Shown piece after piece: positions 10,650-23,718 of a stretch of DNA of 29,139 nucleotides. Source of the DNA: a virus. Its lineage: Duplodnaviria > Caudoviricetes. The DNA lies in the IMG/VR virus record IMGVR_UViG_3300044825_000063, positions 1-29,139 of that record; one strand, given 5' to 3'. Under the pieces are notes generated by a model. That model ran no database searches and had not been told where the DNA came from. It saw only the letters and a program-made list of their open reading frames with translations. Positions within the stretch are counted from its first letter, which is position 1. Every line of letters begins with the position of its first letter. The position numbers and the translations under genes are program-made.

Positions 10650-11248
10650 TTACATATAGCCTTTTCCCAACGGCTGTTGCAAAGTTTGAACTTGGACGGG
10701 ACTACACCGCCGAGGAAATGGCGTTTGTAAATTCGCAACCAACTCATAGCAATTCTGGAAATACGACAAGCGATAATCGCTATGTGTTGCGTCACGACAC
10801 GATGGCAAGCCTAAAGGCATTTGCCGAAGCAAGCGTTAATGAATATTTACGCTCTATTTGTGCGCCAAAGCATGAGGTTGCATTGCGTCTCACGCAATCT
10901 TGGCTCAACTACACAAAAGATGGTCAATACCATCATAAGCACGAACATCCGAATTCGTTTGTGTCAGGCGTGTTGTACTTAAAAGCCGCTCGTCAAAAAG
11001 ACAAAATTCATTTTTATAAAAGTTTGTACCAACAGATTAAATTGCCAACTGATCAATTCAACGTCTACAACAGCGATTCATGGTGGCTTGAGGTAGGCGC
11101 TGGCGATCTAATGCTATTCCCGTCAAGTTTGACGCACATGGTTGAAACCGTGCAGGGCGATGAAAGAGTGTCCTTGGCTTTTAACACATTTCCGGTTGGC
11201 TACGTCGGCGACGAAAGCCATTTAACGGCATTGCATTTGGAGCATTGA
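10646..11248 (+). CDS. Putative 2OG-Fe(II) oxygenase (TIGR02466-like)
   Basis: SWLN...HHKHEHPNSFVSGVLY (HxH), GDLMLFPSSLTHMV (distal His) and RVSLAFN (2OG-binding RxS). Confidence 0.88.
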   Translation: MITYSLFPTAVAKFELGRDYTAEEMAFVNSQPTHSNSGNTTSDNRYVLRHDTMASLKAFAEASVNEYLRSICAPKHEVALRLTQSWLNYTKDGQYHHKHEHPNSFVSGVLYLKAARQKDKIHFYKSLYQQIKLPTDQFNVYNSDSWWLEVGAGDLMLFPSSLTHMVETVQGDERVSLAFNTFPVGYVGDESHLTALHLEH

Positions 11249-16114: not shown

Positions 16115-16722
16115 AGTTTCAACTCCTTCAACTTGGTTACTTTTTCGTCTAATTCTGCGAGGAACTTACGCACCTCGTCCTCTAACTCGGCAATGCGTTT
16201 ATCGTCACGCGGAACCCGCACAATCAGCATTTGCAGATGCTCGGGTAAACGCGGGTCGTAGCTCACAAAGTCACACCATTTCGTCATCGTGCAGGCCATC
16301 TGCCATTGCATCTGCGTGACGTACTTTTCGGGTGGTTTGCCTGATAACAGATATTCCAAGTGGGTCGCGGTGTTGGGGCATTTGAACTCCACCAACCCCT
16401 CGTCACTCACAATGCCGTCAGGGGACGCGCCAGAGTCGCGCAACACTAAATGCTGCACAAACCCTGTCTCTGCCACCAACTCGCCTGTGCGGGCGCTATA
16501 GGCGGCTCTAGCGTGTGGTTCTTGCTCCGTACCCCACTCCATCGCCGCGTTGCTAAACGACGACGCTTTTTGTCCCGTCAGCCGCTCCACAATCAGGTCG
16601 GCCATGTAGTTATCACGGGAGGCGCTGTAGCCGCTTTTGGTCTTGGCAACCACATCGGCCACGCGGGAAGCGGTAACCTTGCCAAGCCGCGCCTTGTGCC
16701 AATCATCGGTACGCTGTTCCAT
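16111..16722 (-). CDS. YqaJ/lambda-type 5'-3' exonuclease
   Basis: QRTDDWHKARLGKVTAS, MEWGTEQE, GASPDG, EFKCP, QMQWQM and FVSYDPR motifs. Confidence 0.95.
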   Translation of the reverse strand: MEQRTDDWHKARLGKVTASRVADVVAKTKSGYSASRDNYMADLIVERLTGQKASSFSNAAMEWGTEQEPHARAAYSARTGELVAETGFVQHLVLRDSGASPDGIVSDEGLVEFKCPNTATHLEYLLSGKPPEKYVTQMQWQMACTMTKWCDFVSYDPRLPEHLQMLIVRVPRDDKRIAELEDEVRKFLAELDEKVTKLKELKL

Positions 16723-17276
16723 TACACATTCTCCGAGGTGGTCAGTTCTTTCTTGCGGGCGGTAAACGCATCAATGTGCGTCATGCGCTGCTCTTTGGTC
16801 AGGCGCTTAAACAACCCGTTAAGGCTGTCTATAGATTTTGTGCTGTTAATCAGCGCCACCAAGTCCTCGTCAAGTTGAGGGGCAGCCTTACGCCCCTGTG
16901 CGGCCTCGGCGTCATCGTCAATCTGTGCCAATCCGACAATCGCAGCCAGCGCATAACGACGGGCGTAGGTAATGCCCGAGCCTTGCCCCTGCGGGCTGGC
17001 ATCCTTGGTCAACACCGGCATTTCGCCCGCGATCCACTCACCGCTGCTATGCGCCAACGTCGTCACTAGCATCAATCCTTGCTCGGCCATGCGGGTTGTC
17101 TGGATCACCGACAAACCGTTAGCGGCTAATTGTTTACGACACGCATCCCAGCATGACGCAAGGTCAGCGTATTTGCTTTTGAAAAACGGGTTGCTACTGT
17201 CTTTCAGCGCACCCGTAATGTCGGCTTGGGCTTTGCTTAACGCGGCGGCCAATGCGCCAATGGTTTCACTCTGCAT
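16722..17276 (-). CDS. erf: ERF-family single-strand annealing recombinase
   Basis: KDSSNPFFKSKYADL, HSSGEWI and QGQGSGITYARRYALAAIVG...DDDA motifs. Confidence 0.95.
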   Translation of the reverse strand: MQSETIGALAAALSKAQADITGALKDSSNPFFKSKYADLASCWDACRKQLAANGLSVIQTTRMAEQGLMLVTTLAHSSGEWIAGEMPVLTKDASPQGQGSGITYARRYALAAIVGLAQIDDDAEAAQGRKAAPQLDEDLVALINSTKSIDSLNGLFKRLTKEQRMTHIDAFTARKKELTTSENV

Positions 17277-17394
17277 CTTCTTGCTCCTTTAGTTCTGCCA
17301 AAGCCTTATTGCAGGCTTCTATGCGTTCTTGTTCTTCACGTTCCTGCATCTCTAAATCCAACTGGTGCCACCAGCTCATGTCATCATCGTTCAT
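17266..17394 (-). CDS. Small acidic hypothetical protein (42 aa)
   Basis: ATG at 17394 after GAGAGGG; MNDDDMSWWHQLDLEMQEREEQE...; overlaps the erf start. Confidence 0.6.
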   Translation of the reverse strand: MNDDDMSWWHQLDLEMQEREEQERIEACNKALAELKEQEDAE

Positions 17395-17509
17395 AACTTG
17401 CAGCCCTCTCTGTGGGAGTACAGCCGCCGTCACCACATGGGTCGCACGCAGCGGCAAGTAAATACAACACAATTAAACCGATAAACTGCGGCCAAGGTGA
17501 GCGGCTCAT
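17384..17509 (-). CDS. Putative small lipoprotein (41 aa), absent from ORF track
   Basis: Manual translation MSRSPWPQFIGLIVLYLLAAACDPCGDGGCTPTERAASYER; ATGA overlap with the upstream stop; hydrophobic core then LAAAC. Confidence 0.6.
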   Translation of the reverse strand: MSRSPWPQFIGLIVLYLLAAACDPCGDGGCTPTERAASYER

Positions 17510-17784
17510 CGGCCTTCATCCCACGGGCCGTTGACCTCGGCATCGGTTTCCGCAATCTCGCGGAGCGTCTCAAGCTGCCAATCAGACAACTCGTCTAAAT
17601 CCATCTGGATGTCGTGGTTAAGGGAGGTGGCGCGTTTGTCGCTGTCAAGGAATATGCCGATCAGGTCGGCACCCTCAAGCGAAATGTCGCCGTCCAAATC
17701 CTGTGCGTATTCCACGCGAACTTCAAACTTGCTGCCGAGGGCGTAGAAGGTGCCAAAGGCGTGAAAGAAATTGTTTTTAAGCAT
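17506..17784 (-). CDS. Acidic early hypothetical protein (92 aa)
   Basis: AGGAG RBS before ATG 17784; 21 D/E versus 7 K/R by manual count. Confidence 0.75.
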   Translation of the reverse strand: MLKNNFFHAFGTFYALGSKFEVRVEYAQDLDGDISLEGADLIGIFLDSDKRATSLNHDIQMDLDELSDWQLETLREIAETDAEVNGPWDEGR

Positions 17785-17812
17785 ATCTATTGCTCCTGTT
17801 GTCAGGGGCGGC

Positions 17813-18070
17813 TTACGCCGCCACCCCGTCAAGGTTGATTACGCGAGGGCGTGAAGGGTCATCAAAAAAGTGGTTGCCTTCCATTGGCGCAGTAAAGTTG
17901 ACCGGCAATTCGGCTTTAAGCGGTACGCCTTCCCAATATCGCGCAACGGTTTCGGCGGTAAACGTGCCTTCGTCAGCGTTAATGCTTTTGACGATGCCGA
18001 TGTAGTAACAATCGCGGTTGCTGTGGAAATCAAGGCTCTTGACAAGGGAACCAATCTTTAAGCTGCTCAT
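17813..18070 (-). CDS. First leftward early gene, hypothetical (possible SH3-like beta protein)
   Basis: AGGAG RBS; directly downstream of the leftward promoter; LKIGSLVKS..F...YIGIVKSI pattern. Confidence 0.75.
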   Translation of the reverse strand: MSSLKIGSLVKSLDFHSNRDCYYIGIVKSINADEGTFTAETVARYWEGVPLKAELPVNFTAPMEGNHFFDDPSRPRVINLDGVAA

Positions 18071-18109
18071 TGTGTATCTCCTATCTGTGGATGCGTTGTG
18101 TCTGTCAAC

Positions 18110-18177
18110 GGTTGCTAGTTTAGCAACCTAAACGGCCATGTCAACACCCTAGGCAAAAAAAGTTTAGACGGATAGAC
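18110..18177. promoter_or_regulatory. Operator-like palindromes in the divergent control region
   Basis: GTTTAG-caac-CTAAAC (18118-18133), imperfect copy GTTTAG-acgg-ATAGAC (18162-18177) and overlapping GGTTGCTA-gtt-TAGCAACC (18110-18128). Confidence 0.6.
18117..18144 (-). promoter_or_regulatory. Leftward early sigma70 promoter (pL-like)
   Basis: Minus strand TTGACA-N16-TAAACT with TG extended -10. Confidence 0.75.
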
Positions 18178-18178
18178 T
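18150..18178 (+). promoter_or_regulatory. Rightward early promoter (pR-like), probably giving leaderless cro mRNA
   Basis: TAGGCA-N17-TAGACT ending 7 nt before the cro ATG; no SD sequence. Confidence 0.55.
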
Positions 18179-18185
18179 GCCGAGC

Positions 18186-18353
18186 ATGGACATACAGAAG
18201 CTCATCAAACGATACGGTAGCCAGCAGGCCGTTGCTGCGGCCCTCGGCGTTACCAAAGGCGCTGTAAGCCAATGGGTAAAGGCTGGGGCGATCCCTGCGG
18301 CTAGGCTGTGGCAGATCAAAGCCGGGGCTGTAAAGCCGCCAAAAGGACGTTAG
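18186..18353 (+). CDS. cro: Cro-like HTH regulator (55 aa), absent from ORF track
   Basis: Manual translation MDIQKLIKRYGSQQAVAAALGVTKGAVSQWVKAGAIPAARLWQIKAGAVKPPKGR, with a classic HTH (AAALGVTKGAVSQW) and IP..R. Confidence 0.92.
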   Translation: MDIQKLIKRYGSQQAVAAALGVTKGAVSQWVKAGAIPAARLWQIKAGAVKPPKGR

Positions 18354-18361
18354 TGGACGCT

Positions 18362-18390
18362 AAAACGAAAAGCCCCCGTGAAGGGGGCTT
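18362..18390 (-). terminator. Intrinsic terminator oriented for a leftward (antisense) transcript
   Basis: Stem AAGCCCCC/GGGGGCTT (18370-18390) with 5-nt loop; U-tract (TTTTCGTTTT) only on the minus strand. Confidence 0.75.
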
Positions 18391-18437
18391 GACGCTGCCG
18401 GGGGACTGGCATTACGCTGAATGTGCAATGTAGCGTG
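18362..18437 (-). ncRNA. Predicted ~76-nt antisense small RNA (OOP/RNA I-like)
   Basis: Bounded by a minus-strand promoter and a minus-strand terminator; three predicted hairpins; no ORF. Confidence 0.55.
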
Positions 18438-18443
18438 GTCAGG

Positions 18444-18472
18444 ATTCTGACGAGCCGTTCTGGTTCTGTCAA
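18444..18472 (-). promoter_or_regulatory. Antisense sigma70 promoter
   Basis: Minus strand TTGACA-N17-CAGAAT; the -10 is covered by palindrome GTCAG-gatt-CTGAC (18438-18451). Confidence 0.65.
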
Positions 18473-18484
18473 CAAACCCATCAC

Positions 18485-18640
18485 GCAGCCCCTTGACATG
18501 GGCCAAATCTGTCAGCGGAGGGCCGGTCGTTTGGATCGGGCTGGACACCGCTTACCAAAGTCCAGCGGGCCTAAACACCGTGGCTATACGGGCATAGGCT
18601 TGGCCTCGCTGCCTTCCGCAGAAGTGGGGGGTAGGGGGGC
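18485..18640 (+). other. Highly structured non-coding element ending in G6-TA-G6 (candidate replication origin/primer RNA)
   Basis: Nested inverted repeats GCTGGAC/GTCCAGC, GCCTA/TAGGC, CCGTG/TACGG, CTTC/GAAG and closing stem CAGCGGAGGGCC/GGCCTCGCTG; GGGGGGTAGGGGGG at 18626-18639. Confidence 0.45.
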
Positions 18641-18675
18641 CATTCCCGGGCTTCCGAGCATTGGGGTATTAAGAC

Positions 18676-19176
18676 ATGGGTAAGATGACAGAAGCACAGA
18701 GAATACGGGTAGCAAGCAGATACGTCAGGGCAGTCAGAGGTAGAGGACTGCAATCTGGTGAATCGCCAATCAAGTTAGCCGTAAAACTGTTAACAGAAAT
18801 GCACCATGCACCGTGTATTGGGGTGCCAGAAAAAAACATTGATTACTTAGACAAGCACCACGCGGTGATGCTGGAGGTAATTAGCGCCAACAAGCACAAA
18901 TTGCCGAAACGAACGAAACGCGCGAAACCAGAGTTTTTAGAGAGTTTTGCGTGGCGCAAAGTGCGAATGGAAGCCTTGCTGAAGTTTGGCCCCAAATGTA
19001 TGTGCTGCGGCGCTACCCCTGCGACGGGCGCGGTAATGCACGTTGATCACATCAAGCCCCGCTTAACGCATCCAGAATTAGCGTTAGAGCTTGATAACCT
19101 CCAAATCCTTTGCCACGAGTGCAACCACGGTAAAGGTAATTGGGACAGCACCGATTGGCGGGGGAAACATGGGTGA
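18676..19176 (+). CDS. HNH endonuclease (McrA-type, Zn-binding)
   Basis: CMCCG...HVDHIKP...DNLQILCHECNHGK. Confidence 0.92.
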   Translation: MGKMTEAQRIRVASRYVRAVRGRGLQSGESPIKLAVKLLTEMHHAPCIGVPEKNIDYLDKHHAVMLEVISANKHKLPKRTKRAKPEFLESFAWRKVRMEALLKFGPKCMCCGATPATGAVMHVDHIKPRLTHPELALELDNLQILCHECNHGKGNWDSTDWRGKHG

Positions 19177-19501
19177 TGAATTCACTTACTTTCCGACTAA
19201 ACAGGCTCAACCGGAAAAGCCTAAACCCAGTCACAACTTAGAACACCAGTTCCACTCCAATCAGGTGATGTGGAATTCGGCAGTACAGGAATCCCCGCTA
19301 AACCGCTTAAAGTTCTACGACGCACAGTTAGCCAGAGGCGTTGAGGTCAACCGTGATAGGGTCGCTGAACTGATCCGAGAGGCTGGCGCTGCTGCCGTGC
19401 TGTCGGATAGGGATACGATTGGGCTGGTACGCCAGCTTTGGGGTGAAAAGGCGGTGGAGAAGTTGCGTGCGCGTGCCAAAACTGAACAAGTACAGAGGTA
19501 A
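19169..19501 (+). CDS. Hypothetical protein (110 aa)
   Basis: ATG at 19169 after GGGGG overlapping the HNH stop; helical composition. Confidence 0.65.
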   Translation: MGDEFTYFPTKQAQPEKPKPSHNLEHQFHSNQVMWNSAVQESPLNRLKFYDAQLARGVEVNRDRVAELIREAGAAAVLSDRDTIGLVRQLWGEKAVEKLRARAKTEQVQR

Positions 19502-19507
19502 TCAAAT

Positions 19508-20218
19508 ATGGTGGCAAATATGGTTAATCCGTTGCATCAACGAGGCCCGGAACGCGGAGGGATACGACGATACCTTGATACCGTCACCCCGCAAGAATAC
19601 CTCCCGCAGACGGGTGAAGTTGACCTTACGCAAGTCACGCTTACTGGCCTTGCCGACCTATTCGGGTCGGATAAGGGGAGCATCAAACACGGCTACACCC
19701 AGCACTATGAGAAGATCATTGACGATTTGGGCGGGAAGAACGCGCCGCTGACCATTGCCGAGATCGGCATAGCGTGTGGGGCATCGCTGCGGATGTGGGC
19801 TAACTATTTGCCTAACTCCAAGATTGACGGTTACGACATCCAGATGGAGTGCGCCAAGCTCTGCCGTGACCTGCCGAGTGTCAGCATCACGATCAGCGAC
19901 CCACGCAAGGTGGACAAAGACGCCGCCTACGACCTAGTGATTGACGACGGCAGTCATATCGCTGAGGACGTTCTTGGGGTGTTGGCGCATTGCTGGAGGT
20001 GGGTCAAACCGGGTGGGTACTACGTCATTGAGGACATGGGCTGTACCTACAACGACGGTTACCGGGACAAGTTCAACAAGCATTTCAGCAAAGACCTGAA
20101 GAACGACCGCAACCTGATGCTCCAGATGTTTGACGCACTCTCTCGGGAAATAGATCACGGGGTCGGTGCGTTTACCGAGATGCGGTATTACCGTCAGATG
20201 TGGGTATTTAAGCGATGA
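19508..20218 (+). CDS. Class I SAM-dependent methyltransferase, sugar O-methyltransferase (MycE/TylE-like)
   Basis: GSDK...HGYTQHYE, EIGIACGASLRMW, YDLVIDDGSH and VKPGGYYVIED motifs. Confidence 0.85.
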   Translation: MVANMVNPLHQRGPERGGIRRYLDTVTPQEYLPQTGEVDLTQVTLTGLADLFGSDKGSIKHGYTQHYEKIIDDLGGKNAPLTIAEIGIACGASLRMWANYLPNSKIDGYDIQMECAKLCRDLPSVSITISDPRKVDKDAAYDLVIDDGSHIAEDVLGVLAHCWRWVKPGGYYVIEDMGCTYNDGYRDKFNKHFSKDLKNDRNLMLQMFDALSREIDHGVGAFTEMRYYRQMWVFKR

Positions 20219-20538
20219 GGCACGCCGCCCGCCGTGATGCCAATGACGCCATCATCACCGAGGCGCTACGCAAGGCGGGATTCACCGTTATGGATTATGG
20301 CAAGGCAGGCCAAGGTATTCCCGACAAACTCGTTACCCGCCCGCTACCTGACGGGTTGCCGTGGGTGTGCTGGGTAGAGGTCAAGATGCCAAAGGGGCGG
20401 CTACGGGAGGCGCAGGAGGCGTTCAAGGCGGTCTTTGGGGCGAGGGGCGAGCATTACGTCGCCCGTGACCCCGAGACGGCTATACGCGACCTGTGGGCGT
20501 TATACGACGAACAGATCAAGCCCGAGCAGCGTCGGTGA
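20215..20538 (+). CDS. VRR-NUC-type PD-(D/E)xK nuclease (putative Holliday junction resolvase)
   Basis: RRDAN..I..ALRKAG...GIPDKLV...WVEVKMPKGRL..AQ..F. Confidence 0.8.
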   Translation: MRHAARRDANDAIITEALRKAGFTVMDYGKAGQGIPDKLVTRPLPDGLPWVCWVEVKMPKGRLREAQEAFKAVFGARGEHYVARDPETAIRDLWALYDEQIKPEQRR

Positions 20539-22397: not shown

Positions 22398-22684
22398 CCG
22401 CCGCGTGGACTCGTAGCGAAGGCAAGAACCCCAAGGGCGGGCTGAACGCCAAGGGCCGCGCCAGCTACAAGCGTGAGACGGGGGGAACTCTTAAGCCGCC
22501 GGTCAAATCGGGTGACAATCCACGCCGAGCCTCTTTCCTCGCACGGATGGGCAATATGCCGGGGCCGATGGCAAAAGACGGTAAGCCCACACGCCTAGCC
22601 CTCGCACTCAAGGCATGGGGAGCCTCTAGTAAGGAGGACGCCCGAGCCAAGGCCAAAGCCATCAGCAGCAGGAACAAGGCATGA
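22394..22684 (+). CDS. Basic conserved phage protein (DUF6321-like)
   Basis: AWTRSEGKNPKGGLNAKGRASY...RRASFLARMG...ALKAW. Confidence 0.8.
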   Translation: MTAAWTRSEGKNPKGGLNAKGRASYKRETGGTLKPPVKSGDNPRRASFLARMGNMPGPMAKDGKPTRLALALKAWGASSKEDARAKAKAISSRNKA

Positions 22685-23718
22685 ATCGCAAACGCCTTGC
22701 CGCTGCACTCGCCTACGTTGACGAGAAGGCAAAGCGCCTGACGAGCCTAGACCAGCCTAAAGAGTCTGACGCCGTGGACATGGCGCTAGAGATGGGCGGT
22801 AGTTTTATCCCCGGCGTAGGCCAAGCCCTTGCTGCCCGCGACTTTGAACGCGCCCGCCGAGCCGGTGACGAAGCTGGTATGGGCATGGCCGCTGCGTCGG
22901 CTTTGCCCGTGGGACGGTTAATCGGTGCGCTAAAGGGCTTTGACCCCGTAATGCGCGAAATTGACGTTTATCACGGTAGCCCGCACCGTTTTGACGAGTT
23001 TGACGCCAGTAAGATCGGCACGGGTGAGGGCGCACAAGCGTATGGGCATGGCATTTACCTTGCCGAAAGCCCTGATGTGGCTAAAACCTACCAATCAGCA
23101 CAAAGCCCTTCAGCGCGTAAAGCAACGATGACGTTGCAAGCATCTGACGGGAACGTAAATAAAGCCATTGCTGCAATGAAAAAAGAAGTTGCAACAATGA
23201 CTGCTCATAAAGATTCGCCGTATTTGCGGCAGGGTGCGTTTCAAGAGACGCAAGACGCGCTAAATTATCTGCAACAAATGAAAAAGGGCGCTGCACCGCA
23301 AACGGGCGCGCTTTACACCGCCGACCTACCCGACGAAATGGTAGATCGGATGCTGGATTGGGATAAGCCGTTAATTGAACAAAGGCCAATATTGAAGGCT
23401 CTAACAGAAATGGCAAACCGCGATAGAACCGGGGCGTCAGCGGTCGCGGCTAGAACCGCTCGCTCCATCCTTCAACGCGCTGGACAGGCAGCAGATAGTT
23501 ACGGAAAAGACAAAGTAACTGGCGCTTCATTGTATGACTCGTTTTTAGCAGATGAGATACCAGACCAAGCACAACGGTCGCAATTTCTTAAAGATTTAGG
23601 CATCCCCGGCATCCGATACCTAGACGCAGGCAGCCGAGGCCAAGGCGGTAGCGGCACCCGTAACTTCGTCGTGTTCCCCGGTGAAGAAAAGAAGGTCAAG
23701 ATACTAAAGCGCGAATGA
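22681..23718 (+). CDS. Protein with pre-toxin-like N-terminus and ADP-ribosyltransferase-like domain
   Basis: SFIPGVGQALAARD; VYHGSPH...GEGAQAYGHGIYLAE...GIPGIRY...NFVVF pattern seen in phage polyvalent proteins. Confidence 0.55.
   Translation: MNRKRLAAALAYVDEKAKRLTSLDQPKESDAVDMALEMGGSFIPGVGQALAARDFERARRAGDEAGMGMAAASALPVGRLIGALKGFDPVMREIDVYHGSPHRFDEFDASKIGTGEGAQAYGHGIYLAESPDVAKTYQSAQSPSARKATMTLQASDGNVNKAIAAMKKEVATMTAHKDSPYLRQGAFQETQDALNYLQQMKKGAAPQTGALYTADLPDEMVDRMLDWDKPLIEQRPILKALTEMANRDRTGASAVAARTARSILQRAGQAADSYGKDKVTGASLYDSFLADEIPDQAQRSQFLKDLGIPGIRYLDAGSRGQGGSGTRNFVVFPGEEKKVKILKRE

Follow-up and report, generated by a model that had tools for sequence, protein, structure and literature searches.

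The window, the whole stretch of DNA analysed here, is a single viral record of 29,139 bases, with complete relatives being longer (35-36 kb). Its terminase shows 39-45% identity to the terminases of Rhodoferax phage P26218 and of HTVC010P-like podoviruses; the gene before the terminase (345 aa, 22681-23718) shows a weak match to the ART-PolyVal (ADP-ribosyltransferase) domain. A leftward recombination operon (Erf, YqaJ, SSB and NinB), with its promoter at 18144-18117 on the minus strand, diverges from a gene for a 55-aa Cro-like HTH protein (18186-18353, plus strand; PF14549, E 6e-12), whose mRNA is probably leaderless, with the promoter at 18150-18178. Two copies of a palindrome (18118-18133 and 18162-18177; span 18118-18177, unstranded) lie across the divergent promoters; it is altered in relatives with a different Cro, and the two copies are likely the Cro operators. 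3' of cro come 320 non-coding bases, then an HNH endonuclease gene (18676-19176, plus strand) and a gene for a conserved 110-aa helical protein (19169-19501, plus strand), for which no family was recognised. In many relatives the latter protein is fused C-terminal to the C-terminal domain of lambda O. Fold and atlas searches with it returned nothing usable (best Z 6.0, rmsd 2.8, 66 aligned residues) and gave no link to helicase loading, which counts against the explanation that we favour below.

The non-coding region was originally predicted, from the sequence of the window, to contain a small antisense RNA gene on the minus strand, and its elements were recovered where they had been placed. 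The antisense promoter P- (TTGACA-17-CAGAAT) lies at 18472-18444, with a predicted start at 18436, and the intrinsic terminator at 18390-18362 comprises an 8-bp stem (18390-18370) with the tail TTCGTTTTAG. The predicted 75-nt RNA between them (18436-18362, minus strand; 71-85 nt in 123 unique relatives) folds exactly as had been claimed into three successive hairpins, namely a 5' stem with a 13-nt loop, a stem with a C-rich loop and the terminator (ACGCU/AGCGU, UGCC/GGCA and the terminator stem; -28.2 kcal/mol, z -3.98, with 0/200 shuffles equally stable). The plus strand of the same 75 nt folds no worse (-33.9, z -4.17). The GC hairpin has its U-tract on the minus strand only: all 123 unique modules show 2-3 T after it on the plus strand versus 6-7 on the minus strand, and G.U pairs in the terminator stem occur on the minus strand only (90 versus 0). 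Taken singly, such motifs are at chance level in 16500-20500 (3 promoters versus 2.3 expected and 6 terminators versus 4.3), and hence the case rests on their joint conservation in relatives.

Viral loci picked by the terminator and TTGACG only (119 loci, 95 unique, 93 long enough) are related to each other, so that the counts do not represent independent events; 87 of these 93 carry the antisense promoter (TGTCAA with an nAnnnT -10 at 69-78 nt), four more have, by eye, a one-base variant of the antisense -35, and 92 have the sense -10. The same pattern in cellular genomes was accompanied by the antisense promoter in just 2 of 64 matches, both of them phage-like contigs in assembled bins (L331 and L337), and no prophage copy was found in cellular genomes. 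Promoter and terminator are thus jointly conserved among the viruses, which had been named as a test of the gene. Selection by the Cro protein recovered the module in 71 of 81 loci (80 Cro-selected plus the window); the ten Cro-selected loci that lack it comprise four contigs ending at cro and six distant Cro genes. Reverse selection on motifs of the downstream cassettes described below found it in 57 of 65 type-A rows, the other eight being chance 15-mer matches by eye, and, by pattern, in 46 of 58 type-B rows, the remainder of which are, by eye, eight standard modules, three diverged ones and one row without a module. These comparisons indicate that a conserved, self-terminating antisense gene of ~75 nt is real. 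Its link to cro did not hold up, since the gene also follows inserted genes and L447 has no cro upstream. A loose two-promoter pattern gave mostly chance matches: judged by eye, the real modules among its 120 rows were confined to the top 7. In L002, L009, L042, L055, L058, L061 and L240, additional genes have been inserted freely, either ahead of the module, behind cro, or past the cassette; those of L240 include a Mom-family gene.

The possible convergent sense promoter of the original prediction is also present: P+ (TTGACG-18-TACGCT; 18389-18418, plus strand) lies inside the antisense gene, with a predicted start at 18425; both promoters are of the sigma70 type. In the 123 unique modules, a set for which, other than for the 93 loci, the sense pattern was part of the filter, both -10 boxes keep the key A and T with a variable middle, and a pyrimidine-purine start step lies 6-7 nt past each -10 (92%/96% on the sense side; on the antisense side the pyrimidine is found in 98%, with A at position 7 in 69% and at position 8 in 28%). 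The sense promoter being conserved too, the two predicted RNAs overlap by only ~12 nt (18425-18436 in the window, unstranded, including the 5' arm of a long sense hairpin), as in IS10 RNA-OUT and unlike ColE1 RNA I; the predicted overlap is 11-15 nt in 122/123 unique modules. The P+ spacer itself encodes a covarying hairpin (18396-18411, unstranded), the loop of which is G-rich on the plus strand and C-rich in the antisense RNA. Its stem has at least 4 bp in 38 of 40 diverse modules, with 22 different perfect stems, and the mean of 4.53 exceeds the 3.10 obtained with swapped arms as well as the shuffled controls. Its loops vary in sequence around a GGG, which is found in 148/177. Thus, relatives preserve stems through covariation while the loops vary, as expected of the proposed RNA. 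RNAalifold on a plain sequence alignment recovered the terminator alone (9 pairs, 2 compensatory), a point against the explanation that we favour below.

What follows the module is an exchangeable slot. The next ~250 bases in 196 module-bearing loci hold one of three cassettes (A in 123, B in 45 and C in 19, with 9 unassigned), and near-identical Cro proteins (98-100%) stand ahead of all three types. Cassettes A and B are non-coding, not detectably related and ~235-290 nt long; homology between the two was rejected, with neither model matching the other type. On their plus strands, covarying stems show compensatory change in 18/46 (A) and 13/39 (B) predicted pairs. The window carries type B (18487-18661, plus strand), which would form the 3' part of a ~237-nt P+ transcript and is a candidate for an RNA-opened origin; the HNH gene is an optional partner of this cassette. 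It contains an invariant G-tract (G6-TA-G6; 18626-18639, plus strand), the only such cluster in the window, the pairing partner of which varies between C and U. Type C, on the other hand, is a DUF1376 gene ('primosomal protein') accompanied by iteron-like repeats and by an A-rich tract close to its 3' end; by an established analogy, it would correspond to a lambdoid initiator-plus-origin. In 11 type-C loci DUF1376 starts 35-41 nt past the P- -35 box. DUF1376 is found in none of four complete A/B genomes, which also lack integrase, CI and ParA, versus one of one for type C. In many A/B phages the next conserved gene opens with the O C-terminal domain only: among the 59 unique regions upstream of such genes there is none without A, B or C (assignment by eye applying to 16, all of them diverged copies of A), and the module lies at most 1.2 kb away in 53 of them. 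Upstream of DUF1376 genes the module is found in 28/54 unique regions, and more distant DUF1376 genes are without it. Comparison across relatives shows not only the promoters, terminator and stems but also the exchange of cassettes.

Several further features of the cassettes were observed. The type-A RNA (L001:2786-3030 and relatives) is a highly conserved structure of ~250 nt with several covarying helices, probable pseudoknots and no Rfam match, and its core motif occurs in about 250 IMG/VR stretches. Both cassettes end in a repeat-hairpin-repeat unit with the repeats ~60-70 nt apart (18589-18595 and 18655-18661 for the type-B repeats of the window). The type-A 11-mers covary, copy 1 having G where copy 2 has A in 77 of 83 cases; speculatively, copy 1 of the RNA would pair with the template strand at copy 2. 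In L538, L539, L829, L830 and L748 cassette B, with or without the HNH gene, is followed by the leftover 3' end of cassette A. Such a remnant lies behind B in 3/73 unique B loci, which suggests that B displaced A, perhaps by homing. Among the DUF1376 variants, L627, L628 and L631 have the antisense gene with a degenerate P+, whereas L613 lacks the module and has the gene coupled directly to cro.

On the sense side, the long hairpin at 18432-18486 (plus strand) encloses P-, and its 5' arm can pair upstream or downstream. The three segments involved change together across modules: the central arm gives -10.8 with its own downstream arm versus -8.3 +/- 0.3 with those of others. In the models, the antisense positions opposite sense nt 1-5 lie in an open loop (0.84-0.96 unpaired), but sense nt 1-7 are only 0.43-0.62 unpaired, which, together with the shortness of the 12-14-nt overlap, speaks against our preferred explanation. 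When the overlap was blocked in silico, pairing of the 3' arm with downstream partners rose from 0.28 to 0.50 in 14 type-B and from 0.27 to 0.58 in 14 type-A sequences; the cassette core was little altered (0.08-0.11 per nt), and this, too, weighs against that explanation. In type C the distance from the sense start to the start codon is 83-93 nt, and the overlap is 11-19 nt; as the overlap does not cover the ribosome-binding site, any effect must be relayed by refolding. Such blocking in 11 type-C leaders lowered predicted access to the ribosome site in only 6, raised it in 1 and left it unchanged in 4 (mean 0.23 to 0.13), another point against that explanation; taken together, these models make a refolding relay in the sense RNA no more than plausible. 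An additional contact of the C-rich antisense loop with the G-rich loop in the long sense hairpin was not upheld: it is not significant in types C (37/500 shuffles) and B (20/500), and in type A its significance (0/500 shuffles) is confounded by kinship; it is absent in the window. A 21-nt arm in the P- region (18461-18481) is 81% complementary to the start region of the HNH gene (18676-18696), to which it is paired in the predicted fold.

The module also occurs in a second group of phages that have no cro, with cassette A in L447 (940-1290) and cassette B in L745 (55-390). In L447 and L530 the cassette stands back to back with a Toprim primase gene and is followed by no downstream sense ORF and then an AT-rich tract. 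L530 (486-695, minus strand) and L775 combine cassette B with a sense promoter and a very AT-rich tract without the antisense gene, and the cassette can hence work without it. This configuration in L530 and the degenerate P+ of L627, L628 and L631 count against the explanation that we favour. Five near-complete relatives were all negative for integrase, for a CI peptidase domain and for ParA, as were five relatives, a set overlapping the former, for DnaB. No other initiator, helicase or polymerase was recognised in the window or among the 58 ORFs of two complete relatives, a count that a remote initiator could escape. Possible signs of an R-loop in the cassette are indirect and limited to the invariant G-tract and a downstream A+T-rich tract: the A+T content of the 60 nt past the cassette is 56% in type A (n=82) and 61% in type B (n=68), versus 44% for the window; but in the window itself this segment has only 55% A+T, which detracts from the origin reading. 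The most A+T-rich stretches of the window are not at the cassette; the richest 60-nt stretches (up to 75%) lie at 10971-11070, within a 2OG-Fe(II) oxygenase gene. The GC-skew minimum falls 0.4-0.8 kb upstream of the module in 4/5 genomes; it was set aside because it coincides with the switch in gene direction.

Our best reading is that an antisense RNA controls the initiation of replication through this module, possibly at an origin opened by RNA. In its explicit form, toward which we lean with modest confidence, binding of the antisense RNA to the 5' end of the P+ transcript makes the latter refold, so that replication initiation is lowered; here we infer transcription, pairing, the relay and origin function. 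The 75-nt minus-strand RNA would catch the 5' end of a rightward transcript arising from a promoter within its own gene, and this capture would throttle the replication cassette which that transcript carries. As modelled, the open loop of the antisense 5' hairpin would pair with the first sense nucleotides, and the pairing would extend to a 12-14-bp duplex, thereby opening the base of the long sense hairpin and freeing its C-rich 3' arm. In the relatives with an initiator gene the freed arm would lengthen a hairpin beside the ribosome-binding site and hide it; in types A and B, including the window, it would misfold the structured RNA that might otherwise take over from the missing initiator by opening or priming the origin. 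Competition between the promoters probably contributes as well. That the likely target is the rightward non-coding transcript tied to replication, as initially suggested, is supported. Control of copy number in a plasmid state, also envisaged in the original prediction, may be a further consequence, though ParA was not found.

Alternatively, the overlapping convergent promoters might act by transcriptional interference, excluding each other and setting the level of transcription into the origin in the manner of lambda pO and pR; the small RNA would then be mostly a by-product, and the terminator would protect the cro operon. The starts lie 11-15 nt apart, so that the footprints of the two polymerases would have to overlap, and lambda pO is reported both to lower pR transcription and to be required for efficient replication (PMC3985674). 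However, this leaves unexplained the covarying stems within the small RNA, the open loop facing the sense 5' end and the three-way covariation of the central arm, and we regard it as unlikely. Likewise unlikely, in our estimate, is an arrangement of the ColE1/CopA type, in which the target would be read-through from the cro operon and all 75 nt would pair via kissing of the G-rich and C-rich loops. The 2-3 T after the hairpin on the plus strand make read-through plausible, and the prevalent yet variable GGG loops of the spacer and the retention of the antisense gene in L627-type loci with a degenerate P+ are in keeping with it. Wobble pairs in the two stems other than the terminator also favour the plus strand (89 versus 9 and 223 versus 12), which we count against our preferred explanation because it fits a read-through sense target; this bias may, however, reflect only G/T-rich loops. 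The conservation of P+ in nearly all of the 93 loci and L447, which has no cro and, by eye, no evident upstream sense promoter, oppose such a target, and the RNA I-like full-length pairing originally proposed is not supported, P+ being equally conserved and the overlap short. Finally, the cassette RNAs could be long leaders or stand-alone RNAs with another job, such as host takeover or endonuclease mobility, the antisense RNA only timing early-middle gene expression; while a gene follows the cassette in most loci, and B is often accompanied by an HNH or DUF559 nuclease gene and at times by the A remnant, this is distinctly improbable given the strict alternation with an initiator-plus-iteron gene, the absence of a downstream sense gene in L447 and L530, and the failure to recognise another initiator, helicase or polymerase in the window or the two complete relatives.

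Antisense control of replication by way of opposed transcripts finds parallels in several systems. Lambda OOP is a self-terminating antisense RNA of 77 nt (PMC3349717), and its promoter pO lies immediately before the initiator slot, directed against rightward transcription (PMC3985674). The conserved gene described here occupies the OOP position, directly upstream of an O-type initiator slot, and specifies an RNA of similar size (71-85 nt). It differs in that no CI or cII is present, with no cII-like ORF between cro and the module, as had been foreseen; hence, overlap with the cII 3' end and lysogeny control do not apply. Moreover, the antisense gene contains a second conserved promoter, in sense direction, and a structured RNA can take the place of O in the slot. 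In IS10 an open loop of the antisense RNA-OUT meets the free 5' end of its target (PMC4737173), and the same loop-to-5'-end geometry as in RNA-OUT/RNA-IN is predicted here by the models. Unlike in IS10, the overlap is 12-14 nt, the ribosome-binding site remains uncovered, and the RNA, with three hairpins, matches no Rfam model. In ColE1, the pairing of RNA I extends over nt 2-110 of the 550-nt RNA II, the promoter of which lies outside RNA I (PMC5043065). RNA I resembles our RNA in its small size, three stems and self-termination, and in facing the start of a long non-coding RNA within an element for which no encoded initiator is recognised (compare the DUF1376 count in complete A/B genomes). 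Unlike ColE1, the overlap is ~12 nt, the long RNA ~235-290 nt, the element a tailed phage and R-loop priming hypothetical, and complementarity does not span the first ~110 nt unless the target is cro read-through. Among phages, T4 oriF and oriG combine a promoter with a downstream unwinding element and a persistent RNA-DNA hybrid (PMC4412123). The layout of promoter plus downstream tract is alike. To our knowledge, the T4 origins involve neither an elaborately folded RNA nor an antisense regulator, and T4 encodes its own replisome.

The plasmid systems R1 (CopB/CopA), pMV158 (CopG/RNA II) and pT181 combine a small HTH repressor, a counter-transcribed RNA and an initiator gene, with the antisense RNAs pairing extensively with the rep leader. 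The type-C relatives share this gene order, unlike types A and B, which have no initiator gene. Three further classes were rejected. The C4 antisense RNA of P1 and the CI RNA of P4 are processed from the same strand as their target, whereas the present gene has its own opposite-strand promoter and terminator and no match to the Rfam c4 family. The lambdoid nut boxB is a hairpin with a fixed GNRA-like pentaloop on the sense strand after cro, whereas here loop length and sequence vary and the terminator wobbles are exclusively on the minus strand. The reading of the spacer palindromes as Cro operators was dropped because the palindromes differ between loci whose Cro proteins are identical, and because the divergent promoters have a repeated palindrome of their own. 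Rfam, including RNAI, gave 0 matches at the gathering score in the window and 13 relatives, with only two chance matches at E<=10 in 18050-18750, and a BLAST comparison of the region with collections of phages and plasmids gave no match. A look among sequencing runs brought up no RNA data set; the four runs compared consist of contigs, probably from DNA, that carry no information about strand or transcript ends. We found no description in the literature; three of the six text supplements of a catalogue of viral structured RNAs (PMC10690425) contain 0 matches to the motifs, and the RNAs may be in the rest.

While antisense control of replication is textbook for plasmids, here a single conserved RNA switch stands ahead of three outputs that can replace one another, one of them a protein initiator and the others different structured RNAs, in uncultured, abundant freshwater phages. 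The notable feature of the module is that RNA cassettes stand in for the initiator gene. We tentatively raise the stronger proposal, to us possible rather than probable, that phages have repeatedly replaced a lambda-O-type initiator and its iterons by two unrelated origin-opening or origin-priming RNAs under antisense control via a 12-nt toehold. If true, this would amount to an RNA replicon that resembles ColE1 in having no initiator, is exchanged between phages as a cassette and possibly governs copy number or superinfection exclusion during an integrase-free carrier state. Were the RNAs origins, they would offer natural matched pairs with an RNA in the role of the initiator protein, two new and compact RNA folds in which R-loop priming could be probed, and an antisense switch with a short toehold in hundreds of natural versions. 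The module also hints at a way in which phages whose only regulator is Cro-like might keep their replication in check. In a more distant phage (L776:1630-1995; MW202691), the gene with only the O C-terminal domain follows another kind of non-coding stretch, which has a minus-strand promoter at its start and the same G-tract hairpin at its end and is possibly a fourth cassette.
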